Shown: one piece after another, positions 5,721 to 62,074 of the stretch
Position numbering within the stretch: position 1 is the first letter of the stretch
Layout: every line of letters starts with the position of its first letter
Origin: an uncultured Spirochaetales bacterium
Lineage (GTDB): Bacteria; UBP6; UBA1177
Reading direction: 5' to 3'
Assembly (NCBI GenBank): GCA_902774115.1
Contig: CACYHH010000003.1
Location: 63,580-127,579, forward strand
Length of the DNA: 64,000 bases
Translations under genes and position numbers: made by a program
Notes under the pieces: generated by a model
Databases searched by the model: none
Seen by the model: the letters and a program-made list of their open reading frames with translations, nothing else
Told to the model about the DNA's origin: nothing

Positions 5721-6995
5721 ATGGTACAGCGAAACAAACAGGATATCCGCTGCTCTTTCTGCGGAAGGTCACAGACGGAAGTCGAAAGAATAATTTACGG
5801 CAGAAACGCATATATCTGCAACGAATGCGTTGAAATGTGTTCTGAACTTCTGACTGAGAATGCCAATGCAGCCGGAAGAAGCGTAGAGCCGAAAAGCAGT
5901 AGCAGAAAAGAGGAACTCCGGACTACTCCGATGGAGATAAAATCCTACCTCGACAAATTCGTGATAGGGCAGGATTACGCGAAAAAAGTTCTCTCCGTCG
6001 CGGTTTACAACCACTACAAAAGGGTAGGTTCATCGAAAAAAACGAGCATCCAGAAAAGCAATATTCTTCTTTTGGGACCTACAGGTTCGGGAAAAACCCT
6101 TCTGGCGCGTACTCTGGCAACATTTCTCGATGTTCCGTTCAGTATTGCCGATGCAACGACTCTCACCGAAGCGGGATATGTCGGTGAAGATGTCGAAAAT
6201 GTCCTTCTTTCGCTGATTCAGGCGGCGAATTACGACATTGAAAAGGCGGAACGCGGCATAATCTACATCGACGAGATCGACAAGATCGCGCGTAAATCGG
6301 AAAACACTTCGATCACCCGCGATGTCAGCGGCGAAGGCGTGCAGCAGGCGCTTCTCAAAATCATAGAAGGAACTGTCGCAAATGTTCCGCCGACGGGCGG
6401 CAGAAAGCATCCGCAGCAGGAATACATAAAAATCAACACTTCCAACATCCTGTTTATTGTCGGCGGCGCATTTGAAGGGATCGACAAAATCATCGCCCGC
6501 AGGATCGGCAGAAAGAAAGTCGGTTTCGGTTCCGAACTTGGCAGGAAAACAGAAGAAAAACATATTCTTTCGGAAATTCAGCCGGAAGACCTTCTCCGTT
6601 TCGGTCTCATTCCGGAGCTTATCGGCAGACTTCCGATGACGGCTTACCTTGAAGAACTCACGTCCGAAGATCTTCGCAGAGTCCTTACCGAGCCGAAAGA
6701 TGCACTCGTATCGCAGTATAAGGAGCTTTTCGCACTTGACGGAATCGAACTGACCTTTACCGACGGAGCTCTGGACGAAATCGTGAAGAAAACTGAAAAG
6801 CTCAAAACGGGTGCCAGAGGTTTGAGGAGAATCCTTGAGACGGCAATGCTTGACATAATGTATGCCGCACCGGGAGAGAAGGAAAAACTTAAAGAAATAG
6901 TCATTACGCCAGAAGTCATCTCATCAGGCGCAGAACCTCAGAAAATATATAAAATCGAACAATCCAAAAACAGAAATTCCGCAAAAGGAGCTTAG
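5721..6995 (+). CDS. clpX: ATP-dependent Clp protease ATP-binding subunit ClpX
   Basis: N-terminal C4 zinc finger (CSFCGR...CNEC). Walker [12 protein letters not shown]. Sits directly downstream of clpP. Confidence 0.9.
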
Positions 6996-7000
6996 TTTAA

Positions 7001-9358: not shown

Positions 9359-9903
9359 GAAAGAAGTTCTTCTGGAATTTTTCCGGTTTTCGCAAAAACT
9401 TTTTCAAGAAAATCATTTGTTTTTATCGGATCTTTCAGATTTTCTTCAGTCAAAACCGGAATATTCGGAAAAAGTTTCATGACTTGAACTGCAAAAAAGC
9501 CGCTTGCATCGGCAGAAATGAGTTCGTTGCTTTTTCCCCGGTAGAGTTTCGTGTTTTTTACTCCGCAGCTCGGGCTTTTTGCCTTTAAAAAGAATCCGTC
9601 AATATCTTTTAATGTTTTCAAATAGTTGACGGAAGTTTCAATCATCTTTTCAGAGAAAAACTTTCCTGTTTCGGGCTGAAAAAGGAGGTTTTTTCCGTCA
9701 ATTCTGACGATTCTTATTTTTTCGCGCGGACATCCAAGACCGATCGCTATTTCAGGGCACCAGTGGATGATTTCGGCCTCTTGTTTGAGCTTTTCGGCAA
9801 AATCGCAGAAAAAATCCTTTCCGTCGTATCTGCATTTGTCAAAACCGAAGCAGCGGCTCATGTAAATTTTTGGTTTTTTGCTCATTTTTTCCTGTAATTT
9901 CAA
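9343..9903 (-). CDS. DUF523 (TudS/YbbK-like) family protein
   Basis: N-terminal CFGFDKCRYDG matches the DUF523 C(L)LGxxCRYDG signature. Confidence 0.45.
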   Translation of the reverse strand: MKLQEKMSKKPKIYMSRCFGFDKCRYDGKDFFCDFAEKLKQEAEIIHWCPEIAIGLGCPREKIRIVRIDGKNLLFQPETGKFFSEKMIETSVNYLKTLKDIDGFFLKAKSPSCGVKNTKLYRGKSNELISADASGFFAVQVMKLFPNIPVLTEENLKDPIKTNDFLEKVFAKTGKIPEELLSYKEI

Positions 9904-25903: not shown

Positions 25904-25906
25904 TTG

Positions 25907-26554
25907 ATGAAACTCAATTCGATTTTCCAGTCCATTCAGGGTGAAGGGCGGTTTCAAGGCTATCCTTCTGATTTTATCAGGTTTTTCGGATGCAACTTGA
26001 ATTGCATCTACTGCGACACGAAACAGACTCTTTCGGGAGATTCGTTTTACATTGAAACGCCTGAGGCAGTCGCTGAAAAAATCAATAAATCTGATATTTT
26101 AGATGTCTGCATTACCGGCGGAGAACCGCTGTGCCAGGAGGAAGAGCTTCTTAAACTTCTGAAACTGCTCCGCGGCAAAAGAATATCAGTCGAAACCAAC
26201 GGAAGTATAGAGCTTGAGCCGCTTTACCGTGAATTTTATGCGGCAAAAACAGATTCTGAGCTCTATTTTTCGACAGACTGGAAAACTCCCGGTTCCGGAA
26301 ATCCAGTTTTTGACGAAAGAAATATCGGTTTTTTGAGAAAAAGCGGTGCAGGGTGGATCAAATTTGTGACCGGAACAGTTGAAGATCTTGATTTTATTGA
26401 TGAAAAACTTCCGATGCTTGACGGGATCGAAACATACTTAAGTCCTGTTTTCGAGAATGGAAAAGAGTGGTTTTCGGCAGTTGAAAAGTTCGTCAAAAGT
26501 CACAAAAATATCAGACTGCAGCTCCAGCTGCACAAAATTCTGGGGATAGAATAA
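25907..26554 (+). CDS. queE: 7-carboxy-7-deazaguanine synthase (radical SAM QueE)
   Basis: SIFQSIQGEG...FIRFFGCNLNCIYCDTKQT closely parallels E. coli QueE ([36 protein letters not shown]). Confidence 0.65.
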   Translation: MKLNSIFQSIQGEGRFQGYPSDFIRFFGCNLNCIYCDTKQTLSGDSFYIETPEAVAEKINKSDILDVCITGGEPLCQEEELLKLLKLLRGKRISVETNGSIELEPLYREFYAAKTDSELYFSTDWKTPGSGNPVFDERNIGFLRKSGAGWIKFVTGTVEDLDFIDEKLPMLDGIETYLSPVFENGKEWFSAVEKFVKSHKNIRLQLQLHKILGIE

Positions 26555-26568
26555 CAAAGAGGTTTAGC

Positions 26569-27681
26569 ATGGATAAAGCGTATTTTTCTTATGAAAATTT
26601 CAAAAAAGACGATATCCGCGGCGTTGACGCCAAGTTCGAGGCGCAGAAAATCGCGTTTGCTCCGCTTGCGTTTCAGGCGGTAAACTCGATGCTTGAGCTC
26701 GGAATAATGAAAATCATCGAGGATGCTGGCGATGATGGCATTACTCTTGAAAAAATTGCGGAAAAATCGGGAATTTCGAAATATGGTCTTTCGGTTATCT
26801 GCGAAATGGCTCTCGGTATGAATGTCCTCAAACTTTCGGCGGATTCAAACCCTGAAAACGAGAAATTCGTTCTCGGAAAAATCGGCTGGATGCTCCTTGA
26901 AGACGACCTGACCCGCGTCAATTTCCGCTTTACGAACGATATCTGCTTTCAGGGCTCTTTTGATTTGGAAAAATCGATAAAAAACGGCAAGCCGGAAGGG
27001 CTCAAAGTCTTCGGCGACCAGTGGGTCACGGTTTACGAAGCGCTTTCAACGCTGCCAGAAAAGGCGAAAAAAAGCTGGTTCGATTTTGACCATTTTTATT
27101 CCGATATAGCTTTTCCTGAGGCTCTTCCGATAGTTTTTGCCGACAAACCGAAGACGATAGTCGATATCGGCGGTAATACTGCGAAATGGTCGATTGCGTG
27201 CTGCAAATACGATCCGGATGTCAAAATGATAATCGCCGATCTGCCGGGGCAGACGAAAGTCGCTGCCGAAAACGCGAAAAAAGAGGGACTCTCTGAAAGG
27301 ATTTCTTACTGCGAAGGAAACATTCTCCGCGAATCGACGAAACTGCCGGAAAACCCCGACACTTTCTGGATGAGCCAGTTCCTTGACTGTTTCTCGCTTC
27401 ATCAGATAACGAAAATCATGAAAAAAATACACGAAGTTGCTGGCGAAAAGACGAAAGTTTACGTTCTTGAACCGCTTTGGGACTGCCAGAGATTCAATGC
27501 CGCGGCATATTCGCTTCAGGCAACTTCACTTTACTTCACCTGCATTGCAAACGGAAACAGCAAGATGTACCGCTTCAAAGAGCTCTGCGACGCGATCTGC
27601 GAAGGCGGTTTCAGACTTGAATGCTCGCACCACAATCTTGGTTCGAACTCTTATTCACTGCTTGAATTCAAAAAGGCATGA
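26569..27681 (+). CDS. SAM-dependent O-methyltransferase (class I, OMT family 2 with N-terminal dimerisation/wHTH domain)
   Basis: Dimerisation domain (KIAFAPLAFQAVNSMLELGI). SAM motif IVDIGGNTAKWS...IADLP. Confidence 0.6.
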   Translation: MDKAYFSYENFKKDDIRGVDAKFEAQKIAFAPLAFQAVNSMLELGIMKIIEDAGDDGITLEKIAEKSGISKYGLSVICEMALGMNVLKLSADSNPENEKFVLGKIGWMLLEDDLTRVNFRFTNDICFQGSFDLEKSIKNGKPEGLKVFGDQWVTVYEALSTLPEKAKKSWFDFDHFYSDIAFPEALPIVFADKPKTIVDIGGNTAKWSIACCKYDPDVKMIIADLPGQTKVAAENAKKEGLSERISYCEGNILRESTKLPENPDTFWMSQFLDCFSLHQITKIMKKIHEVAGEKTKVYVLEPLWDCQRFNAAAYSLQATSLYFTCIANGNSKMYRFKELCDAICEGGFRLECSHHNLGSNSYSLLEFKKA

Positions 27682-28343
27682 GCGAAGTTTTTGTTTCAAA
27701 ACCGGTGATGTGGGCACCCGGACTTGAAGATATCCCGGAAAAATGGGAAAAGTGGCTTTCATGCGATGAAACAATCGAAAAATCGAAGGCTGCTCCGAAA
27801 CTTGAATACACTGAACCGCTTTTCAGGCGCAGGCTGAGCCAGATTTCGAAGATGACAGTTCACGTCGTCCACGAACTTCTTGGAAAGGAGAAGTTTGATA
27901 AAGATACAAAAATTGTTTTTGTCTCGCTCCGTGGGGAAATTGCCCGCGAATTTTCGATAAATCAGGGGATAATCGAGGAAAAAACGATACTTCCTGCTGG
28001 ATTTTCACTTTCGGTTTTCAATACTCCTGTAGCCCTTGCAACGATCGCTTTAGGGCTCACGGGCGGATATTCTGCGGTGTATCCCTCAAAAAGTGATTTT
28101 TCGTCGGCTTTGAAAAACGCTTTTGCCCCGGTTTTATGCGGCGATGAAGAAAAAATCGTTCTTGTTTATGCCGACGAACTTGTTCCCGAGTGTTACGGCG
28201 TTGATTCAATTCCGCTTGCATTCGCGGCGGTGCTAAGCGCTGAAAAAACGGAAACCTCAGTCAAAATTGATGATTTCGAGAGTATAAAATCACCGGATGA
28301 CTTTTTGAAACACCTTCTTGAAGCGGGGAGGAGCGATGTTTAG
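27678..28343 (+). CDS. beta-ketoacyl-synthase N-terminal-like domain protein (chain-length-factor-like, no active-site Cys)
   Basis: ILPAGFSLSVFNTPVALATIALGLTGGYSAVYP...VLVYADE resembles the KS-N core without the catalytic Cys. ATGA overlap with the upstream methyltransferase. Confidence 0.4.
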   Translation: MSEVFVSKPVMWAPGLEDIPEKWEKWLSCDETIEKSKAAPKLEYTEPLFRRRLSQISKMTVHVVHELLGKEKFDKDTKIVFVSLRGEIAREFSINQGIIEEKTILPAGFSLSVFNTPVALATIALGLTGGYSAVYPSKSDFSSALKNAFAPVLCGDEEKIVLVYADELVPECYGVDSIPLAFAAVLSAEKTETSVKIDDFESIKSPDDFLKHLLEAGRSDV

Positions 28344-29175
28344 AATCCCTGAAAATCTGCCCAAAATCAGGAATATATTTTTCTACTGCTACCATTCGTT
28401 AGGCAAGATCGCGGCGATACTTTACATCGTTTTCGGCTCGATGGTCATCGGTTTTATCATTTTCCCTTTCATCAGGCTCTTTTCAAAAGATAAAAACGAT
28501 TTTTATGTGAAGGCGAGAAGGTATGTCTCCAACGTTTTCAAACGGTTCCTTTTCATGCTCAAAATAACCGACATCGTCGAGATGAGAGTGCCTGAAATGG
28601 AGAAACTGCGTAACCTGAAAGGGAAAGTTATCGTCGCGAACCACCCGTCGCTTCTCGATTTTGTCTGCATGACGGCGCTTGTTCCGAACGCTAACTGCAT
28701 AGTACGGGCAAATCTCACAAGAACGCCTTATGTCGGCATAATCAGCCAGATCTACATCACTAACGACGAGAATTATGACGATTTGTTCGAAGCGTGCAAA
28801 GAAGATCTCGACAACGGCAACAACGTCCTGATTTTTCCTGAAGGAACGCGCACTCCGCGCTTCAAAAGGAACATCTACCAGAAAGGTGCCGCAAGAATCG
28901 CGCTCCACGCGAAATGCGACGTTCTCCCTGTTTTCATCGGCGGAAGCGACAAATACGGCCTCGGCAAGCACGATCCGCTCTTTTCCTACAATCCCGTTGA
29001 AGAGTATTTTTACGATTTCCAGCTTCTTCCCGAAATAAAAAGTTCCGACTACGAAGGAATGCCTTCACCAGCCGCGGCAAAGCGCATCACCGGCAAAATC
29101 GAGGAAGAGATCCTCGCCGCCGATGCCGAATACAGAAAAACCAACACCAAGTGCAGAACCTTCAATAATGTGTGA
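28336..29175 (+). CDS. lysophospholipid acyltransferase (LPLAT/AGPAT family) membrane protein
   Basis: NHPSLLD (HX4D) and FPEGTRT motifs. N-terminal TM. Overlaps the upstream gene. Confidence 0.7.
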   Translation: MFRIPENLPKIRNIFFYCYHSLGKIAAILYIVFGSMVIGFIIFPFIRLFSKDKNDFYVKARRYVSNVFKRFLFMLKITDIVEMRVPEMEKLRNLKGKVIVANHPSLLDFVCMTALVPNANCIVRANLTRTPYVGIISQIYITNDENYDDLFEACKEDLDNGNNVLIFPEGTRTPRFKRNIYQKGAARIALHAKCDVLPVFIGGSDKYGLGKHDPLFSYNPVEEYFYDFQLLPEIKSSDYEGMPSPAAAKRITGKIEEEILAADAEYRKTNTKCRTFNNV

Positions 29176-29214
29176 GCTAAGACGAGTCTGGTTTTTTTTA
29201 CTTTGGAGAATGTC

Positions 29215-30063
29215 ATGAAAAAATCGATTATTGTTATAGCAATGCTTGCAGTTGCAACAACACTTTTTGCAGAAAATGAAAGCATGTCATGCGAATCGGA
29301 TCTTGGAAAATGCACTTACACAGTTTCCAATGAATATTTTACAAGAGAATGTTATTGCCGTGACGGCAGAGAAAAAATTTCTGCTTCGGAAGAAATCGGA
29401 AATATGCCGAAAAAAGAGGAATGTGAACTTGAACTTGCCGATATTTGCAGCGAATCAGGATTTATCTGTGAAAACAATGCTGGAGAATGTCATTTGGAAG
29501 CAAGCGGAGAGTATTACTGCTATTGCATTGGCAGAAAAACTCAAAGAGGAAGAGAGGAAAATGTCAGTGCGGAAGGGTGCACCGCAGTTTTGGAGAAAGA
29601 ATGCGGAACAAAGATTGCAACTCCGAGATTCGTTTGTGCCGATTCTGAAATTCTCAATGAATGTGTTTCTTATGAAAGAACTCTTGCAAATTCATGTCTG
29701 GAAGCAATTACTGATGAAGAACTTGAAGCTGCTCTTGACACTCCTATAATCGGGGCTGTAGGGATAGAAGGAGAAATGGCGAGCATTATTGCTCAATGTT
29801 GTGAGAACTCAATCTTGAGAGAAAAACATCAGACTTTTTCAGAGTGTATTGAAACTGCTGAAAGTTGTGCAAACAAAGAATGCTGTGAACCGTGCGGTCT
29901 TATTCTTGACGAAAGTGAATGGATGGATGGTGCTCCGGAAGAAGGTGCTACCGATGTAACTAATACCGAAGCTCCGACAACCGGTGCAACACCGGAAGAC
30001 ACTGCTGACGGCGGAAAAAAGGATGAAAGCAAATCCGACGGCTGTTCGATGCTGTTCATCTAA
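29215..30063 (+). CDS. secreted cysteine-rich protein (about 28 Cys), hypothetical
   Basis: Signal peptide MKKSIIVIAMLAVATTLFA. Repeated C-x-C / YCYC / CCE patterns. Acidic T/P-rich tail. Confidence 0.4.
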   Translation: MKKSIIVIAMLAVATTLFAENESMSCESDLGKCTYTVSNEYFTRECYCRDGREKISASEEIGNMPKKEECELELADICSESGFICENNAGECHLEASGEYYCYCIGRKTQRGREENVSAEGCTAVLEKECGTKIATPRFVCADSEILNECVSYERTLANSCLEAITDEELEAALDTPIIGAVGIEGEMASIIAQCCENSILREKHQTFSECIETAESCANKECCEPCGLILDESEWMDGAPEEGATDVTNTEAPTTGATPEDTADGGKKDESKSDGCSMLFI

Positions 30064-42978: not shown

Positions 42979-43953
42979 ATGAAAAAAATCCTCGGTATGG
43001 GAAATGCTCTTCTGGATATTCTTGTAGCTTTGCCCGGAGATTCAGTTCTGTCGGAACTCGGTCTGGTCAAAGGAAGTATGCAGCTTGTCGATCTTGCTTT
43101 CAGCGAAAGAGTTCTTAAAACGGTCGAAAATCTCGATTTTTCACTCGTAAGCGGCGGCAGCGCATCGAACACGATCCACGGTCTTGCAAAACTCGGAGTC
43201 GAAACTTCGTTCATCGGAAAGGTAAGTGACGACGAATTCGGTTCCATTTTTGAAAAAGATATGCTCGCTTCTTCGATCCGTCCGATTCTTTTCCGTGACG
43301 AGCCGCAGACGGGCAGGGCGATAGCGCTTATTACTCCTGACTCTGAGAGAACTTTCGCGACTTATCTCGGTTCGGCGGTAAAACTTGCGGCTGATGAACT
43401 TACTGCCGGTCTTTTCAAAGGTCACGATCTTTTCCACGTCGAAGGCTATCTTGTTCAGGATCACGATCTGATCGAAAGATCGCTCGTTCTTGCAAAAGAG
43501 GCGGGACTTACGACTTCGCTTGATCTTGCAAGTTTCAATGTCGTTGTCGAAAATTTAGGATTTCTGCAGTCGATAGTTGAAAGATACGTTGATATCGTTT
43601 TTGCAAACGAGGAAGAGGCTCGCTCCTTCACCGGTCTTCCGGCTGAAGAAAGTGCTTTGAAAATTGCCGAAATGTGCAAAATCGCAGTTGTCAAGACAGG
43701 TCCGAAAGGCTCGCTTGTCGCATGCGGCAAAGATCTGCTTACGATTCCGCCGGTTGATGCTAAACGTGTCGATACGACAGGCGCCGGAGACCTTTATGCA
43801 TCAGGTTTTCTTTATGGTTATGTCAATGGTCTCTCTCTTGAAAAGAGCGCAATGGCGGGAACGATACTCGCAGCTTGCGTCATCGAAAAAATCGGTGCGA
43901 AAATACCCGATGAATGCTGGCCTGCAATGGTGGAAAAGATAAGAGCGTTATGA
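42979..43953 (+). CDS. PfkB-family carbohydrate/nucleoside kinase (adenosine-kinase-like)
   Basis: DTTGAGDLYASGFLYG PfkB signature 2. N-terminal GG motif. Confidence 0.6.
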   Translation: MKKILGMGNALLDILVALPGDSVLSELGLVKGSMQLVDLAFSERVLKTVENLDFSLVSGGSASNTIHGLAKLGVETSFIGKVSDDEFGSIFEKDMLASSIRPILFRDEPQTGRAIALITPDSERTFATYLGSAVKLAADELTAGLFKGHDLFHVEGYLVQDHDLIERSLVLAKEAGLTTSLDLASFNVVVENLGFLQSIVERYVDIVFANEEEARSFTGLPAEESALKIAEMCKIAVVKTGPKGSLVACGKDLLTIPPVDAKRVDTTGAGDLYASGFLYGYVNGLSLEKSAMAGTILAACVIEKIGAKIPDECWPAMVEKIRAL

Positions 43954-44315
43954 GTGCAAGTGTGATTTTTCTCATTCTGGCGATAGTTTTCAACGCCGGA
44001 GCCAATATTTTTATGAAAGCCGGAGTAATGGCGGAGCCTGTTAAACTTAGCGACGGCATAATTCCTTTCGTGCTCAGCTACATCACAAATTTCAAACTCA
44101 TGGCGGGCATAGCATGTTTCGGCATAGCACTCGTTTTTTACACGAAGGCGCTTGAAAAGTTCAACCTTTCAATAGCTTATCCGATGATGACTTCGTGCGG
44201 TCTCATAATCGTTACGCTCTGGTCGCTTTTCGTTTTTCAGGAGAAACTGAGTGCAGTGCAATTCGGCGGACTTTTTATGATAATAGGTGGAATATGGCTT
44301 TTAAACATTCACTGA
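43950..44315 (+). CDS. SMR/DMT-superfamily small membrane protein (ArnE/F-like)
   Basis: About 120 aa with 4 TM, typical SMR length. Start overlaps the upstream stop. Confidence 0.4.
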   Translation: MSASVIFLILAIVFNAGANIFMKAGVMAEPVKLSDGIIPFVLSYITNFKLMAGIACFGIALVFYTKALEKFNLSIAYPMMTSCGLIIVTLWSLFVFQEKLSAVQFGGLFMIIGGIWLLNIH

Positions 44316-45316
44316 TTTTTTGTACGATCCTTCTTTTCATAAGTTCGTGCGCCTATTCCGGTTTCAAAAAATATGCCGATGTTCCGGAAGAGGAGTTCAA
44401 AATCGAAGAGATGAATTTCGATGAAGATTTCAAGGAATTTGCCGAAGGAGATATGAACTACACTGTCGGAGTCGGCGACGAAATCAAGATCACGATCTAC
44501 GGAAACCCTCAGGACAGTACGCAGGCAACCGCTCTTGGCGAGATTTTCGGTCATGCCGTAGATGAAAACGGCGAAATCAACATTCCTCTTTTGAAACAGG
44601 TGAAAATTGCCGGTCTTACAAGAAAGGAAATTGTCGAAAAACTTGAGGAAGGTTATTCGAAATTCATCAAAGATCCGCATATAATGTTTGATATCGTCAA
44701 ATACGAAAGCAAATTCTACTATGTTGTCGGCAACGTAAAAAACGCCGGCAAAAATCCGATAAAAGTCAATACGAATATGCTTGAAGCGGTTACCGGAATG
44801 GTTCCTTCGTCTTCTTCTGAAAAAAATTCGATTGAGTTCGTCTATCTTAAACGCGGTGAAAATGTCCTTCCGATAAGCGTCAGCGAGATGGCGACGGGAG
44901 CGCGCGATTTTTCGAAGTATTACCTGAAAGACGGCGACACTTTCTATGTTCCGGCTCCTTCCGCAAACAGAGTCTACATTCTCGGTGAAGTCAAAAATCC
45001 CGGCGCTTTCGAGATGACCGGCAGCAACTACACGATGATAGACCTTGTTGCAGATGCCGGAGGTCTTGTCCAGCCTAATGCAGCCGACGGAAGGATATAT
45101 ATGATTCGTCAGACCGGCGGAAAACACCTTTTGGTTCAGTTTCACTTTGATGATATTATGACCGGAAAAGCGGGTTCAGTGCGTCTTATGCCGGGTGACA
45201 GAGTTTTCGTTGCTCCGCTCGCTCTGGTCAGTTACAACCGCATAATACAGCAGATCGCGCCGACATTCTCACTCCTTTATACCGGAACACTTCTCTACAA
45301 CAACTGGACAAAATAA
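44294..45316 (+). CDS. polysaccharide export lipoprotein (Wza/Poly_export family)
   Basis: Lipobox (LLFISSCAY). Poly_export-like YTVGVGDEIKITIYG. Repeated SLBB-like segments. Confidence 0.55.
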   Translation: MAFKHSLIFCTILLFISSCAYSGFKKYADVPEEEFKIEEMNFDEDFKEFAEGDMNYTVGVGDEIKITIYGNPQDSTQATALGEIFGHAVDENGEINIPLLKQVKIAGLTRKEIVEKLEEGYSKFIKDPHIMFDIVKYESKFYYVVGNVKNAGKNPIKVNTNMLEAVTGMVPSSSSEKNSIEFVYLKRGENVLPISVSEMATGARDFSKYYLKDGDTFYVPAPSANRVYILGEVKNPGAFEMTGSNYTMIDLVADAGGLVQPNAADGRIYMIRQTGGKHLLVQFHFDDIMTGKAGSVRLMPGDRVFVAPLALVSYNRIIQQIAPTFSLLYTGTLLYNNWTK

Positions 45317-45352: not shown

Positions 45353-47836
45353 TTACGATTTCAGTTTTTCTTCGATTGCTTCTTTTACGGCTGAAGCGAG
45401 TTCTTCGCGGGTTTTTCCTTCCGGATTTATCGGCGGAAGATATGTGACATTGATTCTTTTGAAAGGGTGGGGAAATTTTCTGTTGCGGGGAAACGCTTCA
45501 AATGCACCGTCAATCGCAACAGGAATGACCGGAACGCTGATTTCGCAGGCAAGGAGGGAGAATGTCTGCTTGAAATCGCCCAAACCGCCGTCGCGGCTGC
45601 GTGTTCCTTCCGGGAAAATCAGGACGTTGCGCCCTTTTTTGAGAACTGATGCCATCCGTTTTATCGAATCGACGATCTCTTCGTCTTCACGCATGATTAT
45701 GATGTTGTTGCGTTTTGCCATGTATCGGCGCCACCACTGCTTGAAGTGCTTTTCCTTGGCGAAGCAGTAGGTGCGTTTGAACTCTTTTGCCGGAATTTTT
45801 GCCAGCACGAAAAGGGCATCTACCACGCTCTGGTGGTTTGCGGCGAAGATGACCGGTCCTTCGGGAATATTTTCAGTTCCGAAAAAGCGGACTTTGAAGA
45901 AAGTTCTGACCGCGCTTACAAGAGAAAATCTAAGAAGTCTGTGGTAAAACGCGCTTCTCGGTAGCTCGATGTTGTTGATATTTTCCCTGAGAACCGTTTT
46001 CCAGTCCTGTTTTGCGCTGTTAACTTTTCTGCTGCTTCTTTCGGCTGTGAAACCGGCGATTTTGCGAACGGTTGCCATATTCTGAATGTCGGTTTCGCTG
46101 ATTTTTATGCCGAATTCCGAATTGATGAACGATGCCAGTTCGATTTTGTCGAGCGAGTCGAGCCCTAAATCGATTTCGATATGGTCATCCGGAAAGACCT
46201 TTTTTTCGCTTGTTTTCTCAATATATTCAGCGATTTTTGCATATTCTTTGGTGCCGGGGATCTCGCACTTTGCCCGTTTTTCGTCCTTGTTTTTAAGAAA
46301 TTCCTCAAGTTTGAAACGCTGGATTTTGTCGAGTCTCGTCCGCGGCAGCGGCTGGTTCGTTAAGGTAAAATCGAGTATTTTTTTATGGTGTGAAGCCGTT
46401 GAGTTGTATCTGTCGATGATTTCCCAGCGTATGTATTCTTCTAAATTCGGGATCTGCCGCTCTGCAAGTATTTTTTCATCAGGTCTGATGATGGCGCAGA
46501 GAACGCCGTTTTTCGCTATGACCGCGATTTCTTTGATCAAAGTGTCGCTTCTTTCGATATTCTGCTCGATTTCGGTCGGATTTACGTTTTTGCCGTTGCC
46601 GAGAATGATGATTTCTTTTTTTCTGCCGGTGATGCAGAGGTTTCCCTCTTTGTCGAAGTGACCGAGATCGCCGGTGTAAAGCCATCCGTCACGCAGAACT
46701 TCGGCAGTTTCTTCGGGGCGGTTGTAGTAGCCTTTCATTATGTTTTTTCCGGTCGCAACAATCTCTCCGTCAACGATTTTTACCGTTCCTTTCGAAAGTT
46801 CGGTTCCGACGCATCCCGCTTTGCCTTTGCCGGGGCGGGGGAAGGTTATCATCGGGCTTGCTTCGGTCATCCCGTAGCCGTCTCCGATCGAAAAACCGAG
46901 CACTTTGAAGCAGTTCCAGACCTCGGGATCGAGCTTCGCGCCGCCGCAGATGAAGTGTTTAAGATTGCCGCCGAATTTTTTTGCGACCGATTTGAAGATT
47001 ATTTTTGAAAAAGCGGTGCTGTTCGCGATTTTTGCTGTTCTGAATATAGCTTTCGTGAGAAATCCCGAGTTTATTTTCTGCATGATCCCTTTCATCATCA
47101 TTTCGTAGAATCTGGGGACTGCAAGGATCATCGTCGGGTGGCTTTTTTCCATCATTTTGGCAATGTCGGAAGCCTGGAGCGACGGGCAGATTACGGCTTT
47201 TCCTCCGCCTAAAAGAGGAGCTACGACCGTTCCTAAAAGCGGAAAGATGTGGTGCAGCGGAAGAATCATCAGAACGACATCTGAGCTTGTGTAGTAGCCG
47301 CATTCCTGAAGTGCGTCCATGTTTGCCATGATGTTGCGGCATGAAAGCATGACCCCTTTCGGTGAGCCCGTTGTGCCGGAAGTGTAGATTATAAGTGACG
47401 TTTTTTCCTTGTCTTCGACATCGAAATCTGCGGCTTCGTATTTGGAAATGTCGCCCTTTATTTCCTCGAAAACGATCTTTCTTATCTCAGTTTTACCGGA
47501 AATTTCTATTGCTTTTCCGACATTTTCACGCACCTTTTCCGAGAAGCAGATCACGTCCGGCGAACAGTCGTTGATGATGTAGGCGATTTCTTCCGGAGTG
47601 CTCATGAAATCGACAGGAACGACGATCCCGTCCGATTTCCAGATGCCGTAGAACGAATAAATATATTCAGGTCTGTTTTCGCTTATGATAAGGACTCTTT
47701 TTCCGTCGAGATTGCCGAGAATATCAGAAAAAAACGCGACTGTTTTGAGCAGATCCGAGTATGTGATTTCTGAATTTTCTGTAACTATCGCGATGTTGCT
47801 GGTGTTTTTCAGGAACATGCCTCTCTCCTCCGGCAA
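45353..47836 (-). CDS. tri-domain acyl-AMP ligase - acyl carrier protein - lysophospholipid acyltransferase fusion
   Basis: AMP-binding IIYTSGTTGSPKGV. Internal PP-binding DLGLDSLDKIELASFI. C-terminal LPLAT NHQSVVD (HX4D) and FPEGTRS. Confidence 0.7.
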   Translation of the reverse strand: MPEERGMFLKNTSNIAIVTENSEITYSDLLKTVAFFSDILGNLDGKRVLIISENRPEYIYSFYGIWKSDGIVVPVDFMSTPEEIAYIINDCSPDVICFSEKVRENVGKAIEISGKTEIRKIVFEEIKGDISKYEAADFDVEDKEKTSLIIYTSGTTGSPKGVMLSCRNIMANMDALQECGYYTSSDVVLMILPLHHIFPLLGTVVAPLLGGGKAVICPSLQASDIAKMMEKSHPTMILAVPRFYEMMMKGIMQKINSGFLTKAIFRTAKIANSTAFSKIIFKSVAKKFGGNLKHFICGGAKLDPEVWNCFKVLGFSIGDGYGMTEASPMITFPRPGKGKAGCVGTELSKGTVKIVDGEIVATGKNIMKGYYNRPEETAEVLRDGWLYTGDLGHFDKEGNLCITGRKKEIIILGNGKNVNPTEIEQNIERSDTLIKEIAVIAKNGVLCAIIRPDEKILAERQIPNLEEYIRWEIIDRYNSTASHHKKILDFTLTNQPLPRTRLDKIQRFKLEEFLKNKDEKRAKCEIPGTKEYAKIAEYIEKTSEKKVFPDDHIEIDLGLDSLDKIELASFINSEFGIKISETDIQNMATVRKIAGFTAERSSRKVNSAKQDWKTVLRENINNIELPRSAFYHRLLRFSLVSAVRTFFKVRFFGTENIPEGPVIFAANHQSVVDALFVLAKIPAKEFKRTYCFAKEKHFKQWWRRYMAKRNNIIIMREDEEIVDSIKRMASVLKKGRNVLIFPEGTRSRDGGLGDFKQTFSLLACEISVPVIPVAIDGAFEAFPRNRKFPHPFKRINVTYLPPINPEGKTREELASAVKEAIEEKLKS

Positions 47837-47964: not shown

Positions 47965-48675
47965 ATGAAATTTTCGCTTCTTATTCCGGTTTACAACGAG
48001 GAAAAAACACTTGATCTGATTTTTTCAAGAGTTTTCGAGCTTGAAAAATCACCTCTGATCGATGAACTTGAAGTTATCGCGGTTGATGACTGTTCAAAAG
48101 ATAACTCTTTGAATTTATTGAAAAAATATGAATCGGACGGCAGAATAAAGCTGTTTCATCACGAAAAAAATCAGGGGAAAGGGGCGGCAGTCAGAACGGC
48201 TATGGCGAATGCGACGGGCGATTATGTCGTTTTTCAGGACGCCGACCTTGAATATGACCCGCAGGATCTGCTGAAAATGCTCGATTATGCTGTCAAAAAC
48301 AATGTCGATATCCTTTACGGCAGCCGTTTCCTGGGGAAAAAGACGAGCCCCCTCGGTAAATTTCACTATTTAGTGAACGCAGGACTTACGACTTTCTCAA
48401 ATCTTTTCACCGGTCTGAATCTCACCGACATGGAAACATGCTATAAAATGTTCAAAGGCGAAGTTTTGAAAGAAATAAACATCGAAGAAGACCGCTTCGG
48501 TCTCGAACCTGAAATCACGGCTAAAGCGGCAAAAATCTGCGCCGCAAAAAATCTTGCAGTCAAGGAAATTCCGATCAGCTATAACCCGCGCAAATCGGAT
48601 GAAGGCAAAAAAATCGGAGCCAAAGACGGTCTTCGTGCAGTCTATATCATCCTGAAATACGGATTGTTCGAATAA
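47965..48675 (+). CDS. family-2 glycosyltransferase (polyprenol-phosphate sugar transferase, ArnC/DPM1-like)
   Basis: VIAVDDCSKDNS and VFQDADLEYDP (DxD). 236 aa. Confidence 0.65.
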   Translation: MKFSLLIPVYNEEKTLDLIFSRVFELEKSPLIDELEVIAVDDCSKDNSLNLLKKYESDGRIKLFHHEKNQGKGAAVRTAMANATGDYVVFQDADLEYDPQDLLKMLDYAVKNNVDILYGSRFLGKKTSPLGKFHYLVNAGLTTFSNLFTGLNLTDMETCYKMFKGEVLKEINIEEDRFGLEPEITAKAAKICAAKNLAVKEIPISYNPRKSDEGKKIGAKDGLRAVYIILKYGLFE

Positions 48676-48707: not shown

Positions 48708-50162
48708 TTATTCCGAAGCCTCTTCGTTGAATGAATCAAGCATGGTTTTTACAGTTTCCGGCGGGAGCCTGAAGTGAAGTCCCTGGGGAATTTCAAGAAG
48801 TTCATGCGGATAGAACTCCTGGATTCCGACAAATTTCAAGTCTTTGTCGAGGATAGCCGCTTTTCCTTTTCTTCCGGTCGTCCTGAAAACATCAAGGGAA
48901 CACGCCAGCTGTTTTTTGCCGATGACGCGGAGAATCGTTCCGGGCGGGAAGACTCCGAGCGCGCTGAAAAGTGCTTTGACCGTAACCTTGGCAAAACAGC
49001 GCATATCAGCCATTTTGAAAAGCTGTTCTATTGCTTCCGGACGTTTCATGGGCATGGTTTTGCGTGCCGGCCACCAGCGTGTCGCGAGATCGTAGTAGTC
49101 GCAGACTTTTATGAGTTCGCCCAGAGGCGTTGACATAATCGGTTTTTCCGGCGGTACCGGTTTGCAGTCGAAAGTATATGTCGTATGGTGAAGACCTGCC
49201 GTGATCGCAGCTTCCATCATTGCGAAGTTGAGTGAATTGAGTCTGCTCAAAACCGCAAAACCGTTCTGGCAGTGTTCGACGACTTCTCCCTTTGAATTTT
49301 CCGGAAGGTCGATGTCGTGGAAGTATGCCGCGGTGCCGATTCTGGTGAGAAGCGAACGGTCTATGCCGAGCTGAACTCCGGCGGCAATACTTAAAATAGC
49401 CGTATTTGTCAGGTGAGTCGCGATCATTTTGCCGCGGAGACTGTTTATCGAAGCCAGAACCATGAGATGTGATTCCTGTGAATCGCTTGAACCGTCGCAG
49501 ATCATGTCGATCGCGTTCTGGATGTTTCTCATAGCCTTTTTCAGCGGCATCGGACGGTTTTCGTTGATTTTCGTCTTGAACATCGAATGGTCAAGTACCA
49601 TATTGCGGTAGGTGAGTCTCGCTAGCTGGCTTTTGTTCAGGATGTTGAAAAGGTCGTCTCCGCCTGAACTGTCGCGCTGCGTTATCTGGATTTTTATTCC
49701 TTTGCTTTTGATTTTTTTCTCAAAGTAGTCAAAGACAACGTCGCTTTTGATGTTCGATTTTATTACTTCCTGACCGATAAGCATAAATTCGATTATTTCG
49801 CTGATTCCGCCTGCCTTTTGAAATACTATTGTCGCAACCTGCAGGTGGATGTAGAAATCCTCAAGTTCGTCGAACGAAATATTCAGTCCTTTTTTCCGGC
49901 GCACCCTTACGTCGTTGAGCATAAAGTCGTTGCCGTTGAAGGTGAAATCGAAAAAAGAGTCGGTGGCAAAAAAGAACTTTATTGTTTCGCCCAGTTTTTC
50001 AGTATTTTTTTCAACAGTTTCGTTTGCCGGACCGTAAAGCCTGAGTGCCTTCAAAAGAGCATTGAACGCAACTGTGAAATCATACATTCTTTCTCTTTCG
50101 ACCCTGTCTGAATTTTCAAAAAATTCAGAGGATATCACATTGTTCTGAAGTTCTTCGCTCAT
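48708..50162 (-). CDS. HD-GYP-like domain protein with degenerate GYP motif
   Basis: C-terminal half shows H..N.A.L...LGI...AAYFHDIDLP, GLHH, then PLGELIKVCDYYDLATR in HD-GYP order. FDCKPVP occupies the GYP position. Confidence 0.4.
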   Translation of the reverse strand: MSEELQNNVISSEFFENSDRVERERMYDFTVAFNALLKALRLYGPANETVEKNTEKLGETIKFFFATDSFFDFTFNGNDFMLNDVRVRRKKGLNISFDELEDFYIHLQVATIVFQKAGGISEIIEFMLIGQEVIKSNIKSDVVFDYFEKKIKSKGIKIQITQRDSSGGDDLFNILNKSQLARLTYRNMVLDHSMFKTKINENRPMPLKKAMRNIQNAIDMICDGSSDSQESHLMVLASINSLRGKMIATHLTNTAILSIAAGVQLGIDRSLLTRIGTAAYFHDIDLPENSKGEVVEHCQNGFAVLSRLNSLNFAMMEAAITAGLHHTTYTFDCKPVPPEKPIMSTPLGELIKVCDYYDLATRWWPARKTMPMKRPEAIEQLFKMADMRCFAKVTVKALFSALGVFPPGTILRVIGKKQLACSLDVFRTTGRKGKAAILDKDLKFVGIQEFYPHELLEIPQGLHFRLPPETVKTMLDSFNEEASE

Positions 50163-52207
50163 AAGTATTTATCCTTGATTTTATTGACTATTTTAACTGT
50201 TTCCTTGTTGCCGGACGACAAAGATTTTTCTATGAATTTTTTAGCTTCAGGATCGTTCCTGTAGTAGAAAATCGCTTTGTAGAATTCTTCTTTCGCAGTC
50301 GGTACAGATTTGTTGAAAAGACTTCCGGATGCAGAAAGCATGTTTTTAACTGCCGGGAAAAGTTCCGGAAAAATCTCAGGTTTCAGAAGTTTACAGAAAG
50401 CCTGAAGCTCGTCGGTTTTCATTTTCGACAGAGAGTTTATGTCTGCCGCCCTGATTATAAATTTTTCAAAGTGACTCATTGTTGTCGCTTTCTGTATCGC
50501 CTGTATCGCTTTCATCCTTATTTCGGGGTCTTCGGTCAGAAGCTGCTGCCCCAAAAGGTCGAAAAGATCGTAGCGGCGCAGAGAAATTATCATCTGAAAA
50601 ATCTCGTCAATTTCGTCGTTTTCAAGTTTTTTAAGGTTGTGGACCTGAAGCAGACGGTTTACGATCGGTTTGATCGCCGTATTGTCCTTGAGTTCGAGAA
50701 TCTTCTGTATTGCCGCACTTCTGACATCTCTGGCGGATGAGAAGACCGCTCTTTCAAGTGCCGGAAGAGCTTCTTCGACCGAAAATTCCATGAGAAGAGC
50801 CAGAGCTTCGATACGCGCCTGTTTCTGCGGATGTGAAACGGTCGCCCTGATTGCGGGAAGGATTCTCGGATCTTTTTTATCTTTCATCATTGCCAGTGCA
50901 TTACGGACGACTTTCCAGTCGGAATGTCTTGTAAGGGCAAGGAGATCGTCGGTTATAGGCATGTGTTCCGAGCAGCTGTGTATAATTGCGATTCTCGTGT
51001 CCTTTGAATCGATACTGTTGATTTTGGAAAGAAGGAATTCCATTTTTTTCGCCGGAACCATTGCAAAAAGTTTGCCGATAACGGCAATTTCCTCTGCAGG
51101 AATATCTTCTATCGTGAAAAAGAAATCGCTTAAAAACTCTTCGTTTTCAAGGTCTGCAAAAGTATCTCTTATCTTTTTGGCATATTCCGGCTGAGTGTGC
51201 TGAAGCTGTTCCGCAATGGTTTTCAAAGTCTGAATGAAGAGGATCGCGCCGCTTACCGAGCCGAAAAGAAGCAGTTTTTCCCAAAGCGAAACGGCGGTGT
51301 CCAGAAGCTCTTTTCCCGCTTTTGTCCCCTGACTGCTCATAAGCCGCGAAGAAAGTTCCTTCAGAAAGCGGTTGACAACGAAAGAATCGCTGTTTCTTTT
51401 CAGGGCTTCGTCAAATTTGAACATCTCCATTTTGCCGACGATGTAGTTCGAAAGCCTCTGGTTGAGCAGCTCTTTGCGCTCATTAAAATCGATCTCTCTC
51501 TCTTCTTTCATCATAAGTTCCGAATATTTTTCGAAATCGGATGATTCGAACTTCGGAGCGTTCGCCATATCCTGCGGTGAGTTTCCCGCGCCTTCCTTGC
51601 CTTCATTGTCTATTTCGCCGATACCGTCGAAACCGGGACCGTATGAAAGTTCTTCGACAAGAAACGGTGAGAAATTATCTGCATCATTCGAAATTGAAAG
51701 ATTCTGTTTTATGAGCTCATCCTCAGTAATATAGCCGATATTCGTGAAATTGTGATCCCAGAGAAGAGTTGAAAGGTCGTAGTCTTCGTTTGCGAACAGC
51801 GTGCACTGCGCCAGAATATCGAAAAACTGCCAGATTTCATCTTTCTGGGTTCCTTTCTGGAAAAAAATCTCGCGCAGACCATCGTTGTAAAGGAAAAAAA
51901 CGACTTCGCGGTCTTTTTCACCGGTTTCCAGAACATGACTGCCGAGCATAAAACCCTTTGTGGAAATCCTTAATGAAATCGAAGGAATATCGGAAAGAAT
52001 CTCATCCAGTTTTACCTTGAACTGGTCTGCAAACCTGGAAAATGCGGGATTCGTTCTCGGATAGAGCCTGTAGCCGCGGATGACCTTTCCGAAAAGGGTG
52101 ACAAGTTCTTTAGTCGATTTGACCAGCTCGTTGTCATCAAACAGCTTGTCGGCATTGTCTTTAAAAAAATCAAATATTTCTCTCTTTTTTTCGCTTGCTT
52201 TTACCAT
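50159..52207 (-). CDS. HEAT/PBS-lyase-repeat protein, hypothetical
   Basis: Tandem HEAT-like repeats (PAIRATVSHPQKQARIEALALL..., ALPALERAVFSSARDVRSAAIQKIL...). ATGA overlap with the downstream HD-GYP-like gene. Confidence 0.5.
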   Translation of the reverse strand: MVKASEKKREIFDFFKDNADKLFDDNELVKSTKELVTLFGKVIRGYRLYPRTNPAFSRFADQFKVKLDEILSDIPSISLRISTKGFMLGSHVLETGEKDREVVFFLYNDGLREIFFQKGTQKDEIWQFFDILAQCTLFANEDYDLSTLLWDHNFTNIGYITEDELIKQNLSISNDADNFSPFLVEELSYGPGFDGIGEIDNEGKEGAGNSPQDMANAPKFESSDFEKYSELMMKEEREIDFNERKELLNQRLSNYIVGKMEMFKFDEALKRNSDSFVVNRFLKELSSRLMSSQGTKAGKELLDTAVSLWEKLLLFGSVSGAILFIQTLKTIAEQLQHTQPEYAKKIRDTFADLENEEFLSDFFFTIEDIPAEEIAVIGKLFAMVPAKKMEFLLSKINSIDSKDTRIAIIHSCSEHMPITDDLLALTRHSDWKVVRNALAMMKDKKDPRILPAIRATVSHPQKQARIEALALLMEFSVEEALPALERAVFSSARDVRSAAIQKILELKDNTAIKPIVNRLLQVHNLKKLENDEIDEIFQMIISLRRYDLFDLLGQQLLTEDPEIRMKAIQAIQKATTMSHFEKFIIRAADINSLSKMKTDELQAFCKLLKPEIFPELFPAVKNMLSASGSLFNKSVPTAKEEFYKAIFYYRNDPEAKKFIEKSLSSGNKETVKIVNKIKDKYL

Positions 52208-60562: not shown

Positions 60563-62074
60563 TTATTTTAGATCTGGATTTGTCTTCAAAATCTCAGGAT
60601 CGACTTCGTAGATGTTGAAATATGGAGTTTTGTGCTTCAGGACCATTCCTTTCGGCGGTTTATTCCTCAGTTTTCTCAGTTCTTCCTTAGATATTTTGAA
60701 GCGTGATGCGCTGGAATTGAATTTGTGAGTGATCAGGAAAACCCCCGGTTTTTTGATCTGTTTGAGCGAATTGATGAATCTGTAGTTTTTGTTTTTGTAA
60801 CCTGAATAGTAGTCTATGCGGTAGTAAATATTTCTATCGGCGAGATATATCGTGGTGTCAGGATAGTTCGAGAGGAGTACCGACATCGATTCTTTCTGGT
60901 TTTTTCTGGCTTTTTTGTAAAAATCGCTGTTGTCCAGAGAAAAATAGATGTTGCTTATAAAAATTGTAAGGAAAATCACCAGAGCAGCTATTTTTGCGGC
61001 GATTTTTTTCGTTTTGACCAAATCCCAAAGAAGGATGGCACACATAGCACATAGAGGAAGAACGAAAATTATCGTATAGCGGTTGTTTCTGATGAGTGTG
61101 GTGTAGGGATTCAGGCTTGTCGGCGCGAACGACATGAAAAGAAAGTATGAGACGAACCAGATGAAAAACATGACTTCTCTGCCGCATTTTTTCAGGCACA
61201 TTTTCACGATGCAGGCAAGAAGTGCGGCAACTGTGAAATATCCGCCGAATCCGAATGTTCTCCAGCGGGCGAAGTTACCGGATGTAAAAGCGCTTCTGAT
61301 GTAAAAAAAGAGGTCTTTCGGATCAACGTCGGTCATTCTGTTCTGGTATGCGACAACTTTTTTGCTGAGTTCAAAAACATGAAAGAAGTTGTTGTGGACT
61401 TTGAGGTAGACAAAACCCTGGAATATTGCGGGAACAAGCGAAACAAGCGCCGCGCATAGAACCCAGAGAATTGTTTTTTTGTTGAATCCTTTTTTATACC
61501 ACACGTAAATCGAGACTAAGGGCGCGATAAAAAGCCCCGTCGTTCTGGCGAAAAATATCCAGCCTATTGAGAAACCGCCGAGAATGAACCAGCCGGTTTT
61601 TCCGGTGTTTGCACCTCTCTGGAATGAATAAACGGTGAGAAGCGTGAAAAATTCAAGCGGTGCTGCAACCTGGAGAAAGTTCGTAAAGATAGCGACGATC
61701 GGATATGTAATGTAAAAAAGAGTCGTAACTATTGCTGTTGCCCTGTCGGTTTCGGCTTCTATTATTTTGTAAGCCAGCCAGACGCTTGAAACGCCGTAAA
61801 CCATTGTGGGAAGAAGAGAAGTGAAGTCGCTTACCCCGAACAGTTTGTAAAGAAGCGCCGCCGGAGCGAAAACGACCCATCTGGCATCGAAAATGAAGCC
61901 GGCTGAAAAGTTGCCGTTTGCGAATCTGTTTGCCAGCGTGCTGTAGGGAAAGTCGTCACCCTGGGCAATTCCCATGAAATTGATCATTCGGAATATGAAT
62001 GAGAAAATCATAAGAAGATATACGGGATCGATTGGAAATCCTTCAAGTTTTTTGCGTATTTTGTCAAAATTCAT
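60563..62074 (-). CDS. PMT/ArnT-like (GT39/GT83) polytopic glycosyltransferase
   Basis: About 12 TM, 503 aa. N-terminal loop and first helices typical of the ArnT/PMT dolichyl/undecaprenyl-phosphate sugar transferase family. Confidence 0.5.
   Translation of the reverse strand: MNFDKIRKKLEGFPIDPVYLLMIFSFIFRMINFMGIAQGDDFPYSTLANRFANGNFSAGFIFDARWVVFAPAALLYKLFGVSDFTSLLPTMVYGVSSVWLAYKIIEAETDRATAIVTTLFYITYPIVAIFTNFLQVAAPLEFFTLLTVYSFQRGANTGKTGWFILGGFSIGWIFFARTTGLFIAPLVSIYVWYKKGFNKKTILWVLCAALVSLVPAIFQGFVYLKVHNNFFHVFELSKKVVAYQNRMTDVDPKDLFFYIRSAFTSGNFARWRTFGFGGYFTVAALLACIVKMCLKKCGREVMFFIWFVSYFLFMSFAPTSLNPYTTLIRNNRYTIIFVLPLCAMCAILLWDLVKTKKIAAKIAALVIFLTIFISNIYFSLDNSDFYKKARKNQKESMSVLLSNYPDTTIYLADRNIYYRIDYYSGYKNKNYRFINSLKQIKKPGVFLITHKFNSSASRFKISKEELRKLRNKPPKGMVLKHKTPYFNIYEVDPEILKTNPDLK

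Follow-up and report, generated by a model that had tools for sequence, protein, structure and literature searches.

The 64,000-nt stretch of DNA analyzed here, referred to below as the window, comes from an uncultured Spirochaetales bacterium of the UBP6 lineage (assembly GCA_902774115.1, contig CACYHH010000003.1, positions 63,580 to 127,579 of the forward strand). On its minus strand, at 45353..47818, lies a gene for a tri-domain protein in which a fatty-acid-activating ligase, an acyl carrier protein (ACP) and a PlsC-type acyltransferase are joined, in this order, in one polypeptide. We consider, with somewhat more confidence than doubt, that the protein is a stand-alone peripheral-membrane enzyme salvaging free fatty acids into glycerolipids or re-acylating lysophospholipids. 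It is a further member of a large, widespread and still uncharacterised family, which has already been noticed in the literature: the family consists of ElbD-like proteins devoid of the FAR-like reductase domain and having an Aas-like chemistry.

The gene lies in a single open reading frame (ORF) which runs on the minus strand from 47836 down to 45353 and comprises 827 codons with zero internal stops; with one such clean frame, a pseudogene or a frameshifted gene was rejected. The start of the mechanically delimited ORF is a TTG at 47836, giving 827 aa. An ATG at 47818, located 18 bases inside the TTG-started ORF, is preferred because it is preceded by GGAGGAGAGAGG and because the resulting N-terminus, MFLKNT, agrees with the family consensus MFxK. 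This ATG is likely to be the true start, and the complete coding sequence would then occupy 45353..47818, encoding 821 aa, with the stop codon at 45353-45355. A scan for promoters and terminators around the gene returned counts at or below the shuffle expectation. By comparison of loci (see below), the gene acts as a monocistronic unit sufficient in itself.

All four domains detected by a Pfam search of the protein exceeded the curated gathering cut-offs (residue numbers here and below refer to the 821-aa protein). The adenylation N-terminal domain, AMP-binding PF00501, occupies residues 8-365 (46724..47797, minus strand as for all the domains; E 4e-69, 233.7 bits vs the cut-off of 29.9) and is followed by the adenylation C-terminal subdomain, AMP-binding_C_3 PF23562, at residues 402-505 (46304..46615, E 4e-9). 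Then come the embedded acyl carrier, PP-binding PF00550, at residues 543-590 (46049..46192, E 2e-7, 31.6 bits vs 20.8), and the PlsC/LPLAT-type domain, Acyltransferase PF01553, at residues 643-769 (45512..45892, E 2e-23, 82.9 bits vs 23). The adenylation N-terminal domain carries the P-loop YTSGTTGSPKG (residues 145-155) and GYGMTE (residues 314-319); the A8 motif GRKKE (residues 398-402) is situated just upstream of the C-terminal subdomain, within which the A10 catalytic Lys498 is found in LPRTRLDKIQR. The phosphopantetheine-attachment Ser555 of the carrier (codon 46154-46156) belongs to DLGLDSL, while in the acyltransferase domain the motif NHQSVVD, with His662 (codon 45833-45835) and Asp667 (codon 45818-45820), precedes AKEKH (residues 687-691), FPEGTR (residues 735-740) and VPVIPV (residues 762-767).

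Conservation of these residues was analyzed in an alignment of 139 sequences, that is, the window protein and 138 homologues sharing 36-95% identity. Each of the following positions was the same in 139/139 sequences: Y145-T150, K154, G155, E319, T382-G383-D384, G398-R399 and K498 in the adenylation module, D554-S555-L556 in the carrier, and H662, D667, E737, G738 and R740 in the acyltransferase. Since the active-site residues of every module are invariant, all three activities are under common selection; a vestigial carrier domain was rejected in view of the invariant Ser555. An earlier interpretation of this DNA, made without database searches (the sequence-only reading), had described one polypeptide of 827 aa with an adenylation domain, an internal phosphopantetheine site and a C-terminal acyltransferase. 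Its domain assignment is borne out by the Pfam matches in one minus-strand frame and by the invariant residues, and the motifs it quoted, DLGLDSL, HX4D (as NHQSVVD) and FPEGTR, are all in place. The length holds for the open frame, while the likely protein is shorter, at 821 aa. The two findings which that reading itself regarded as fatal to it, a carrier missing its serine and domains encoded in separate frames, were both looked for, and the serine was present and the frame common.

The protein is homologous to E. coli Aas (b2836; 2-acylglycerophosphoethanolamine acyltransferase/acyl-ACP synthetase): BLASTP gave 26% identity between the ligase halves (E 1e-26) and 24% between the acyltransferase halves (E 5e-13). 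Aas is described as binding ACP in a high-affinity site, loading it with free fatty acid and using the acyl-ACP to acylate lysophospholipids supplied by LplT (PMC13170283). By analogy, the two proteins would have a common chemistry leading from fatty acid and ATP through an acyl thioester on ACP phosphopantetheine to a lysophospholipid. The domain order is nevertheless acyltransferase-ligase in Aas and ligase-ACP-acyltransferase in the window protein, the carrier is covalently embedded in the latter whereas Aas recruits free ACP, and the window ligase, unlike Aas, has the COG1022-style C-terminal subdomain PF23562. The Aas-like logic with a reversed domain order and an embedded carrier, as perceived from the letters alone, is thus corroborated by BLASTP to Aas and by the Pfam order. 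In the NCBIfam search with the whole protein, an Aas-type model, PRK08633, was the second-best match (E 1.5e-67).

The acyltransferase domain shares the HX4D, EGTR and VPxxPV motifs with PlsC/AGPAT enzymes. Among solved structures, a single one is related to it by sequence, that of the lysophosphatidate acyltransferase PlsC of T. maritima (5KYM), with E 7e-19 over 180 residues. PlsC enzymes are single-domain proteins using a soluble acyl-ACP or acyl-CoA donor, whereas in the window protein the donor would be tethered in cis. The best NCBIfam match of the carrier is the AcpP-type model TIGR00517 of the type-II fatty acid synthase (E 6e-10, below the cut-off). That an AGPAT can be joined to a carrier-protein assembly line is already seen in the myxobacterial polyunsaturated fatty acid synthase Pfa3, which possesses a C-terminal AGPAT and is presumed to pass the acyl chain straight to 1-acylglycerol-3-phosphate (PMC6731297). 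In Pfa3, the chain is built de novo by polyketide synthase-like domains, whereas the window protein would make use of a free fatty acid captured by its ligase.

The scheme that we infer, which covers the fatty-acid substrate, the in-cis loading of the carrier, the acceptor and the physiological role, is as follows. The ligase domain would adenylate a long-chain fatty acid with ATP, and the acyl group would go neither to CoA nor to free ACP but to the phosphopantetheine attached to Ser555 in the enzyme's own carrier. The PlsC-type domain (His662/Asp667) would then transfer the tethered acyl chain to a hydroxyl group of a glycerolipid in the membrane, the likeliest acceptor being a lysophospholipid or 1-acyl-glycerol-3-phosphate (LPA). 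In this way the enzyme would re-acylate lysophospholipids and take up fatty acids from outside by an Aas-type route with ACP fused in cis, and a phosphopantetheinyl transferase encoded elsewhere would be needed to prime the carrier. In agreement with this scheme, residues 377-401, DGWLYTGDLGHFDKEGNLCITGRKK, fit by eye the signature of fatty-acyl-CoA synthetases (FACS), DGWLHTGDIGxWxPxGxLKIIDRKK, reportedly defined by Black et al. in 1997, and at most positions they are invariant or nearly so in the family alignment. Because the Aas-homologous halves flank a carrier with an invariant phosphopantetheine serine, the proposal of the sequence-only reading, that the enzyme could activate an acyl chain, carry it and hand it on with no separate ACP involved, is the natural interpretation of three modules in one chain.

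In an AlphaFold2 model of the protein, for which 45 sequences were used, the individual domains are predicted with confidence (mean pLDDT 83, pTM 0.59). A PDB fold search gave ligase and adenylation-peptidyl carrier protein (A-PCP) didomain matches only, and nothing concerning the acceptor. The ligase part superposes best, at about 4 Å, on thioester-forming conformations, namely 4CL with AMP and CoA, the MenE ternary complex and the second luciferase conformation, while the A-PCP didomains retrieved were McyG, CAR and EntE-EntB. In the model, helices come before the catalytic core of the acyltransferase. None of the 19-residue hydrophobicity windows resembles a membrane span, and their maximum falls within the ligase core. 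As no hydrophobic span exists outside this core, an integral membrane protein was rejected, and the tri-domain protein should be soluble or peripheral.

A number of facts weigh against the fatty-acid salvage scheme. The ligase is nearest to CoA-forming ligases: by PDB sequences and NCBIfam, its closest relatives are CoA-ligase-type ANL enzymes (feruloyl-CoA synthetase, MatB, 4CL, FadD5/FadD13, PRK06187), and CoA may be used by it. The whole protein is well under the curated cut-off of every NCBIfam equivalog, so its specificity cannot be transferred by homology. Among the models unreached are those of Aas itself (PRK08043, PRK08633 and PRK06814, with scores relative to cut-offs of 228/1221, 161/1349 and 45/886, respectively). 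In E. coli, lplT adjoins aas; tblastn with E. coli LplT gave no match at E 1e-3 or better in the window and 65 related loci. Owing to the low NCBIfam scores, the other domain order and an LplT-like gene not being found nearby, the window protein lies outside the Aas family as curated. The acceptor proposed is suggested by similarity at the family level. Finally, M. xanthus ElbD, which has the same ligase-ACP-acyltransferase core, showed no detectable acyltransferase activity in vitro (PMC9131029), and our survey of the literature found no published characterisation of a FAR-less member.

The affinity of the ligase to CoA-forming enzymes could also be explained if the protein were an ordinary acyl-CoA synthetase, its acyltransferase using acyl-CoA or soluble acyl-ACP and its carrier being an unloaded structural linker. 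Both the closest solved and the closest profile relatives of the ligase are CoA ligases, FadD10 being the only PDB sequence matched that resembles the fatty acyl-AMP ligases (FAALs), and it ranked low (E 8e-18). Moreover, the spacing between the A5 Glu319 and the A7 Asp384 amounts to 65 residues and leaves no obvious room for the FAAL-specific insertion. An idle carrier is nevertheless highly improbable, since the D554-S555-L556 triad is kept throughout the alignment, down to 36% identity, family members are known that multiply the carrier to 2-3 copies, and the ligase and carrier activities of ElbD have been confirmed in vitro (PMC9131029). As a side remark, the same feruloyl-CoA synthetase has a second PDB entry, deposited as a 'fatty-acyl-CoA synthase'.

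In searches with the acyltransferase half, the generic AGPAT model TIGR00530 and the acyltransferase part of PRK08633 tie, both at E 1.2e-23. TIGR00530 scores 83.3 vs its cut-off of 102.95, and the PlsC equivalog PRK15018 scores 30.8 vs 501, both cut-offs thus being unreached. This shortfall from the curated AGPAT and Aas cut-offs would be compatible with a specialised lipid as the product, in which case the acyl chain would go to something other than a glycerophosphate, for example a lyso-aminolipid, a glycolipid, diacylglycerol or another metabolite. The PlsC family does include the lyso-ornithine/lyso-glycine lipid acyltransferases OlsA, GlsA and OlsF, tandem paralogues in Ilyobacter (see below) suggest diversified specificity, and surveys of FAALs list FAAL-type ligase plus LPLAT fusions of Actinomycetota and Pseudomonadota as an unexplained architecture (PMC8460268, PMC12820801). 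Those fusions pair fatty-acid-adenylating and LPLAT_AGPAT-like domains as the window protein does, yet the window ligase is nearer to CoA-ligase-type than to FAAL structures and shows no obvious room for the FAAL insertion. With the OlsA, GlsA and OlsF models the matches were weak, at E 3.6e-5 to 3e-4; the AGPAT/Aas-type profiles did better by about 19 orders of magnitude, and no conserved biosynthetic partner genes accompany the fusion. Furthermore, A687, K688, K690 and H691 of AKEKH, a motif-II-like element, are invariant in the family alignment, and AKEKH resembles the AKKEL-type motif of LPA acyltransferases. For these reasons a specialised acceptor seems to us unlikely, and a glycerolipid acceptor is preferred.

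Among the described proteins, the core of the window protein has its counterpart in M. xanthus ElbD (MXAN_1528, UniProt Q1DC43), composed of a FAR-like reductase, an acyl-CoA synthetase, an ACP and an AGPAT-like acyltransferase (PMC9131029). By published description, the two have the same ligase-ACP-AGPAT-like core in the same order. In contrast to ElbD with its N-terminal FAR/reductase domain, no such domain was found by Pfam in the window protein or in the neighbouring genes, and the window gene is not accompanied by elbB, elbC or elbE, as elbD is. In the review PMC9131029, which cites Lorenzen et al. 2014, ElbD-like homologues of anaerobes, animal pathogens and extremophiles are stated to lack FAR in almost all cases; these FAR-less proteins have the architecture of the window protein. 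For ligase-ACP-PlsC fusions, the literature which we could find is limited to reviews treating ElbD, papers on Aas and brief mentions of FAAL-LPLAT fusions, with nothing on Fusobacterium.

The relationship to ElbD, which is required for alkyl ether lipids in M. xanthus (PMC9131029), raises the possibility that the window protein acts in ether-lipid synthesis as a reductase-less homologue, with a reductase supplied in trans or a GNPAT-like acyltransferase step leading to alkyl-glycerol ether lipids. Such a role would be in line with the FAR-less homologues reported, in the same review, from anaerobes, pathogens and extremophiles, and with the split between the reductase and adenylation domains which occurs in variants from Poribacteria and Acidobacteria (bioRxiv 10.64898/2026.06.23.733905). 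We regard it as having only a small chance of being correct. A reductase domain is absent not only from the window protein but also from all the long variants, taken from the 150 best representatives, that were scanned with Pfam. Neither the part of the window that was annotated (19.7-62 kb) nor the surroundings of the homologues in related loci contained an NAD-dependent reductase, elbB (HAD) or elbE (NAD-dependent epimerase). BLAST surveys find ElbD 'homologues' very widely, and Pontiella possesses them with no ether lipids detected (PMC11868695), while the known anaerobic routes to ether lipids run via PlsA/PlsR or Ger (bioRxiv 10.64898/2026.06.23.733905). A BLAST match to ElbD without the reductase domain should not be taken as ether-lipid capacity.

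The architecture itself is common. About 8000 matches were obtained when 5.8 billion proteins were searched, and the best 120 of these, whose domain content was examined, all combined AMP-binding and acyltransferase domains within about 820 aa, PP-binding being recorded in all but 3. These 120 proteins are named only 'AMP-binding protein' or 'long-chain acyl-CoA synthetase/ligase', the RefSeq label being 'AMP-binding protein'; for the tri-domain family such labels are uninformative. A second search, with the ACP-acyltransferase half (residues 506-821) against 1.84 billion representatives at 50% identity, revealed 190 clusters at E 1e-30 or better, most of them of about 820 aa and matched at positions 510-820. 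The novelty implied by the sequence-only reading was therefore not upheld, the same architecture being present in thousands of database proteins and already remarked in print. Nor did the Fibrobacteres, which it had named for profiling of the fusion, find support as the taxon, as none of the closest genomes bears this label: the closest homologues (82-95% identity) belong to uncultured rumen metagenome-assembled genomes (MAGs) of the UBP6 lineage, some of which are labelled Spirochaetales.

Beyond this lineage, full-length homologues were found in Sumerlaeota, in Marinilabiliales-type Bacteroidales, Alkalitalea, Natronoflexus and Paludibacter, in Victivallales and Leptospirales, in Fusobacterium animalis, F. 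vincentii and Ilyobacter polytropus, as well as in Ignavibacteria, Calditrichia, Fidelibacterota and Desulfobulbus. I. polytropus (NC_014633.1) has two full-length paralogues in tandem, of 827 aa (L063 4287-6770) and 819 aa (6995-9454), both annotated only as 'AMP-binding protein'. Three tandem carriers are present in the variant P0238 and two in P0259, while P0260 contains two acyltransferase domains (ligase-ACP-acyltransferase-acyltransferase); the tandem-carrier and double-acyltransferase variants fit a glycerolipid-acylating machine. Another variant, P0244, is 1493 aa long, with about 870 unannotated residues beyond the acyltransferase domain. More distant relatives, with 26-27% identity, occur in Rubrobacter radiotolerans (L065 4899-7903, 911 aa) and Methylobacterium nodulans (L066 4482-7637, 949 aa), and may be of the FAAL-LPLAT kind. 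After each of the two comes a small hypothetical gene (about 90-100 aa) that overlaps or adjoins it, and a 'CDP-archaeol synthase'-family gene is located near the M. nodulans relative.

If the salvage scheme is true, the family would represent a widespread, compact and self-sufficient means by which fatty acids are taken up from outside or lysophospholipids repaired, including in the Fusobacterium nucleatum group, and would bear on the ways in which gut and rumen anaerobes make membranes from host or dietary lipids and on whether they can bypass inhibitors of fatty-acid synthesis. A bolder version, which we put forward tentatively and with more doubt than belief, is that in many anaerobic diderms the fusion is the main, hitherto unrecognised route of free environmental fatty acids into phospholipids, and a fully channelled one. 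There would then be no soluble acyl-CoA or acyl-ACP intermediate, and one protein would replace Aas/LplT, FadD/PlsC or FakAB/PlsX in the F. nucleatum group, rumen lineages, Ignavibacteria and Victivallales.

The genes next to the tri-domain gene invite a different interpretation. The preceding plus-strand genes encode an SMR protein (43950-44315), with ArnF and ArnE as the best matches (below cut-off), and a Wza-like Poly_export+SLBB lipoprotein (44294-45316); beyond the tri-domain gene, also on the plus strand, lies the gene of a 236-aa family 2 glycosyltransferase (GT2; 47965-48675) resembling the polyprenyl-phosphate sugar transferases AglJ, PpgS and ArnC, likewise below cut-off. The neighbours had been described in the same terms by the sequence-only reading (Wza-like exporter, SMR/ArnE-like protein, ArnC-like GT2), and these descriptions were confirmed. 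As listed, the Wza-like ORF begins with a GTG at 44195 and overlaps the SMR gene by 120 nt; from the ATG at 44294 it yields MAFKHSLIFCTILLFISSC, which is a lipoprotein signal including the cysteine of a lipobox, and the resulting length of 340 aa agrees with the relatives.

From this adjacency it had been suggested that an acylated lipid-linked glycan or a remodelled envelope lipid is produced and exported with the participation of GT2, the SMR-like flippase and the Wza-like exporter. The genes do adjoin one another in the window and in some close relatives, there is a similarity, below cut-off, of GT2 to polyprenyl-phosphate-sugar synthases and of the SMR protein to ArnE/F flippase subunits, and farther on, at 60563-62074 (minus strand), a GT-C glycosyltransferase of PMT_2/ArnT-like type is encoded. 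The arrangement of the genes, however, speaks against such a link. The tri-domain gene meets the Wza-like gene tail to tail across a 36-bp gap and diverges from GT2; being on the opposite strand, it shares an operon with neither neighbour.

The conservation of this neighbourhood was assessed with the ORFs of 28 loci carrying full-length homologues, clustered by BLASTP. In the ten loci of close relatives (82-95% identity), the Wza-like gene was on the same flank in 7/10 and GT2 in 5/10. The closest locus, L001 (95% identity, 10 kb on each side), has neither flank in common with the window, GT2 is missing from L002, L004 and L009, and the Wza-like gene from L008. In L004 (92% identity), two ORFs of 645 aa and 127 aa stand between the tri-domain gene and the Wza-like gene, which marks this junction as a rearrangement hotspot. 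Lineages at 63% identity or less have unrelated neighbours: a FetA/FetB-like ABC pair after the gene and a Ser/Thr kinase before it in the sister clade of 60% identity, DUF554 in Alkalitalea/Natronoflexus, a Na:Ala symporter in Fusobacteriia MAGs, ribB in Leptospirales, a DegT aminotransferase in Victivallales, a two-component system in Ignavibacterium, a ferredoxin in Desulfobulbus, and DUF1846 together with a TlpA-family protein in F. animalis. Across the lineages in the 28 loci, no gene family is held in common besides the fusion itself, as would be expected of a self-sufficient housekeeping enzyme.

The wider window is a housekeeping mix (fmt, H+-PPase, an SNF2 helicase, a gamma-carbonic-anhydrase-like protein, 5'-nucleotidase, a PfkB kinase, a GalT-like protein, a sugar nucleotidyltransferase and a Clp ATPase), in which no Wzx, Wzy or Wzc was found. 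Besides, O-acylation of glycans is normally performed by AT3, LbH or SGNH enzymes, and not by cytoplasmic PlsC-type domains. With the gene on the opposite strand and the linkage seen only in some relatives at 82% identity or more, the functional connection to the export and glycosyltransferase genes was not sustained, and participation of the enzyme in glycan export can hardly be expected. The tri-domain gene stands beside the glycan genes merely through the chance order of genes in this region, and it should not be counted within a glycan-export locus.

A few features of the surroundings deserve mention in their own right. The SMR, GT2 and GT-C genes are three scattered components typical of an Arn/Gtr-like periplasmic glycosylation system, and could work together without the tri-domain enzyme. 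Just past GT2, at 48708-52207 (minus strand), two co-directional genes encode a 484-aa protein with no Pfam/NCBIfam match and a 682-aa HEAT-repeat protein; both genes are kept alongside GT2 in five close relatives. At a distance of 15 kb from the tri-domain gene, with housekeeping genes between, five co-directional genes occupy 25904-30063 (plus strand) and encode a radical-SAM protein, an O-methyltransferase, a ketosynthase-like protein (PF13723 Ketoacyl-synt_2), a second, stand-alone PlsC-family acyltransferase of 285 aa (28318-29175) and an unknown 286-aa protein. This group resembles part of a gene cluster of the aryl-polyene or secondary-lipid type.

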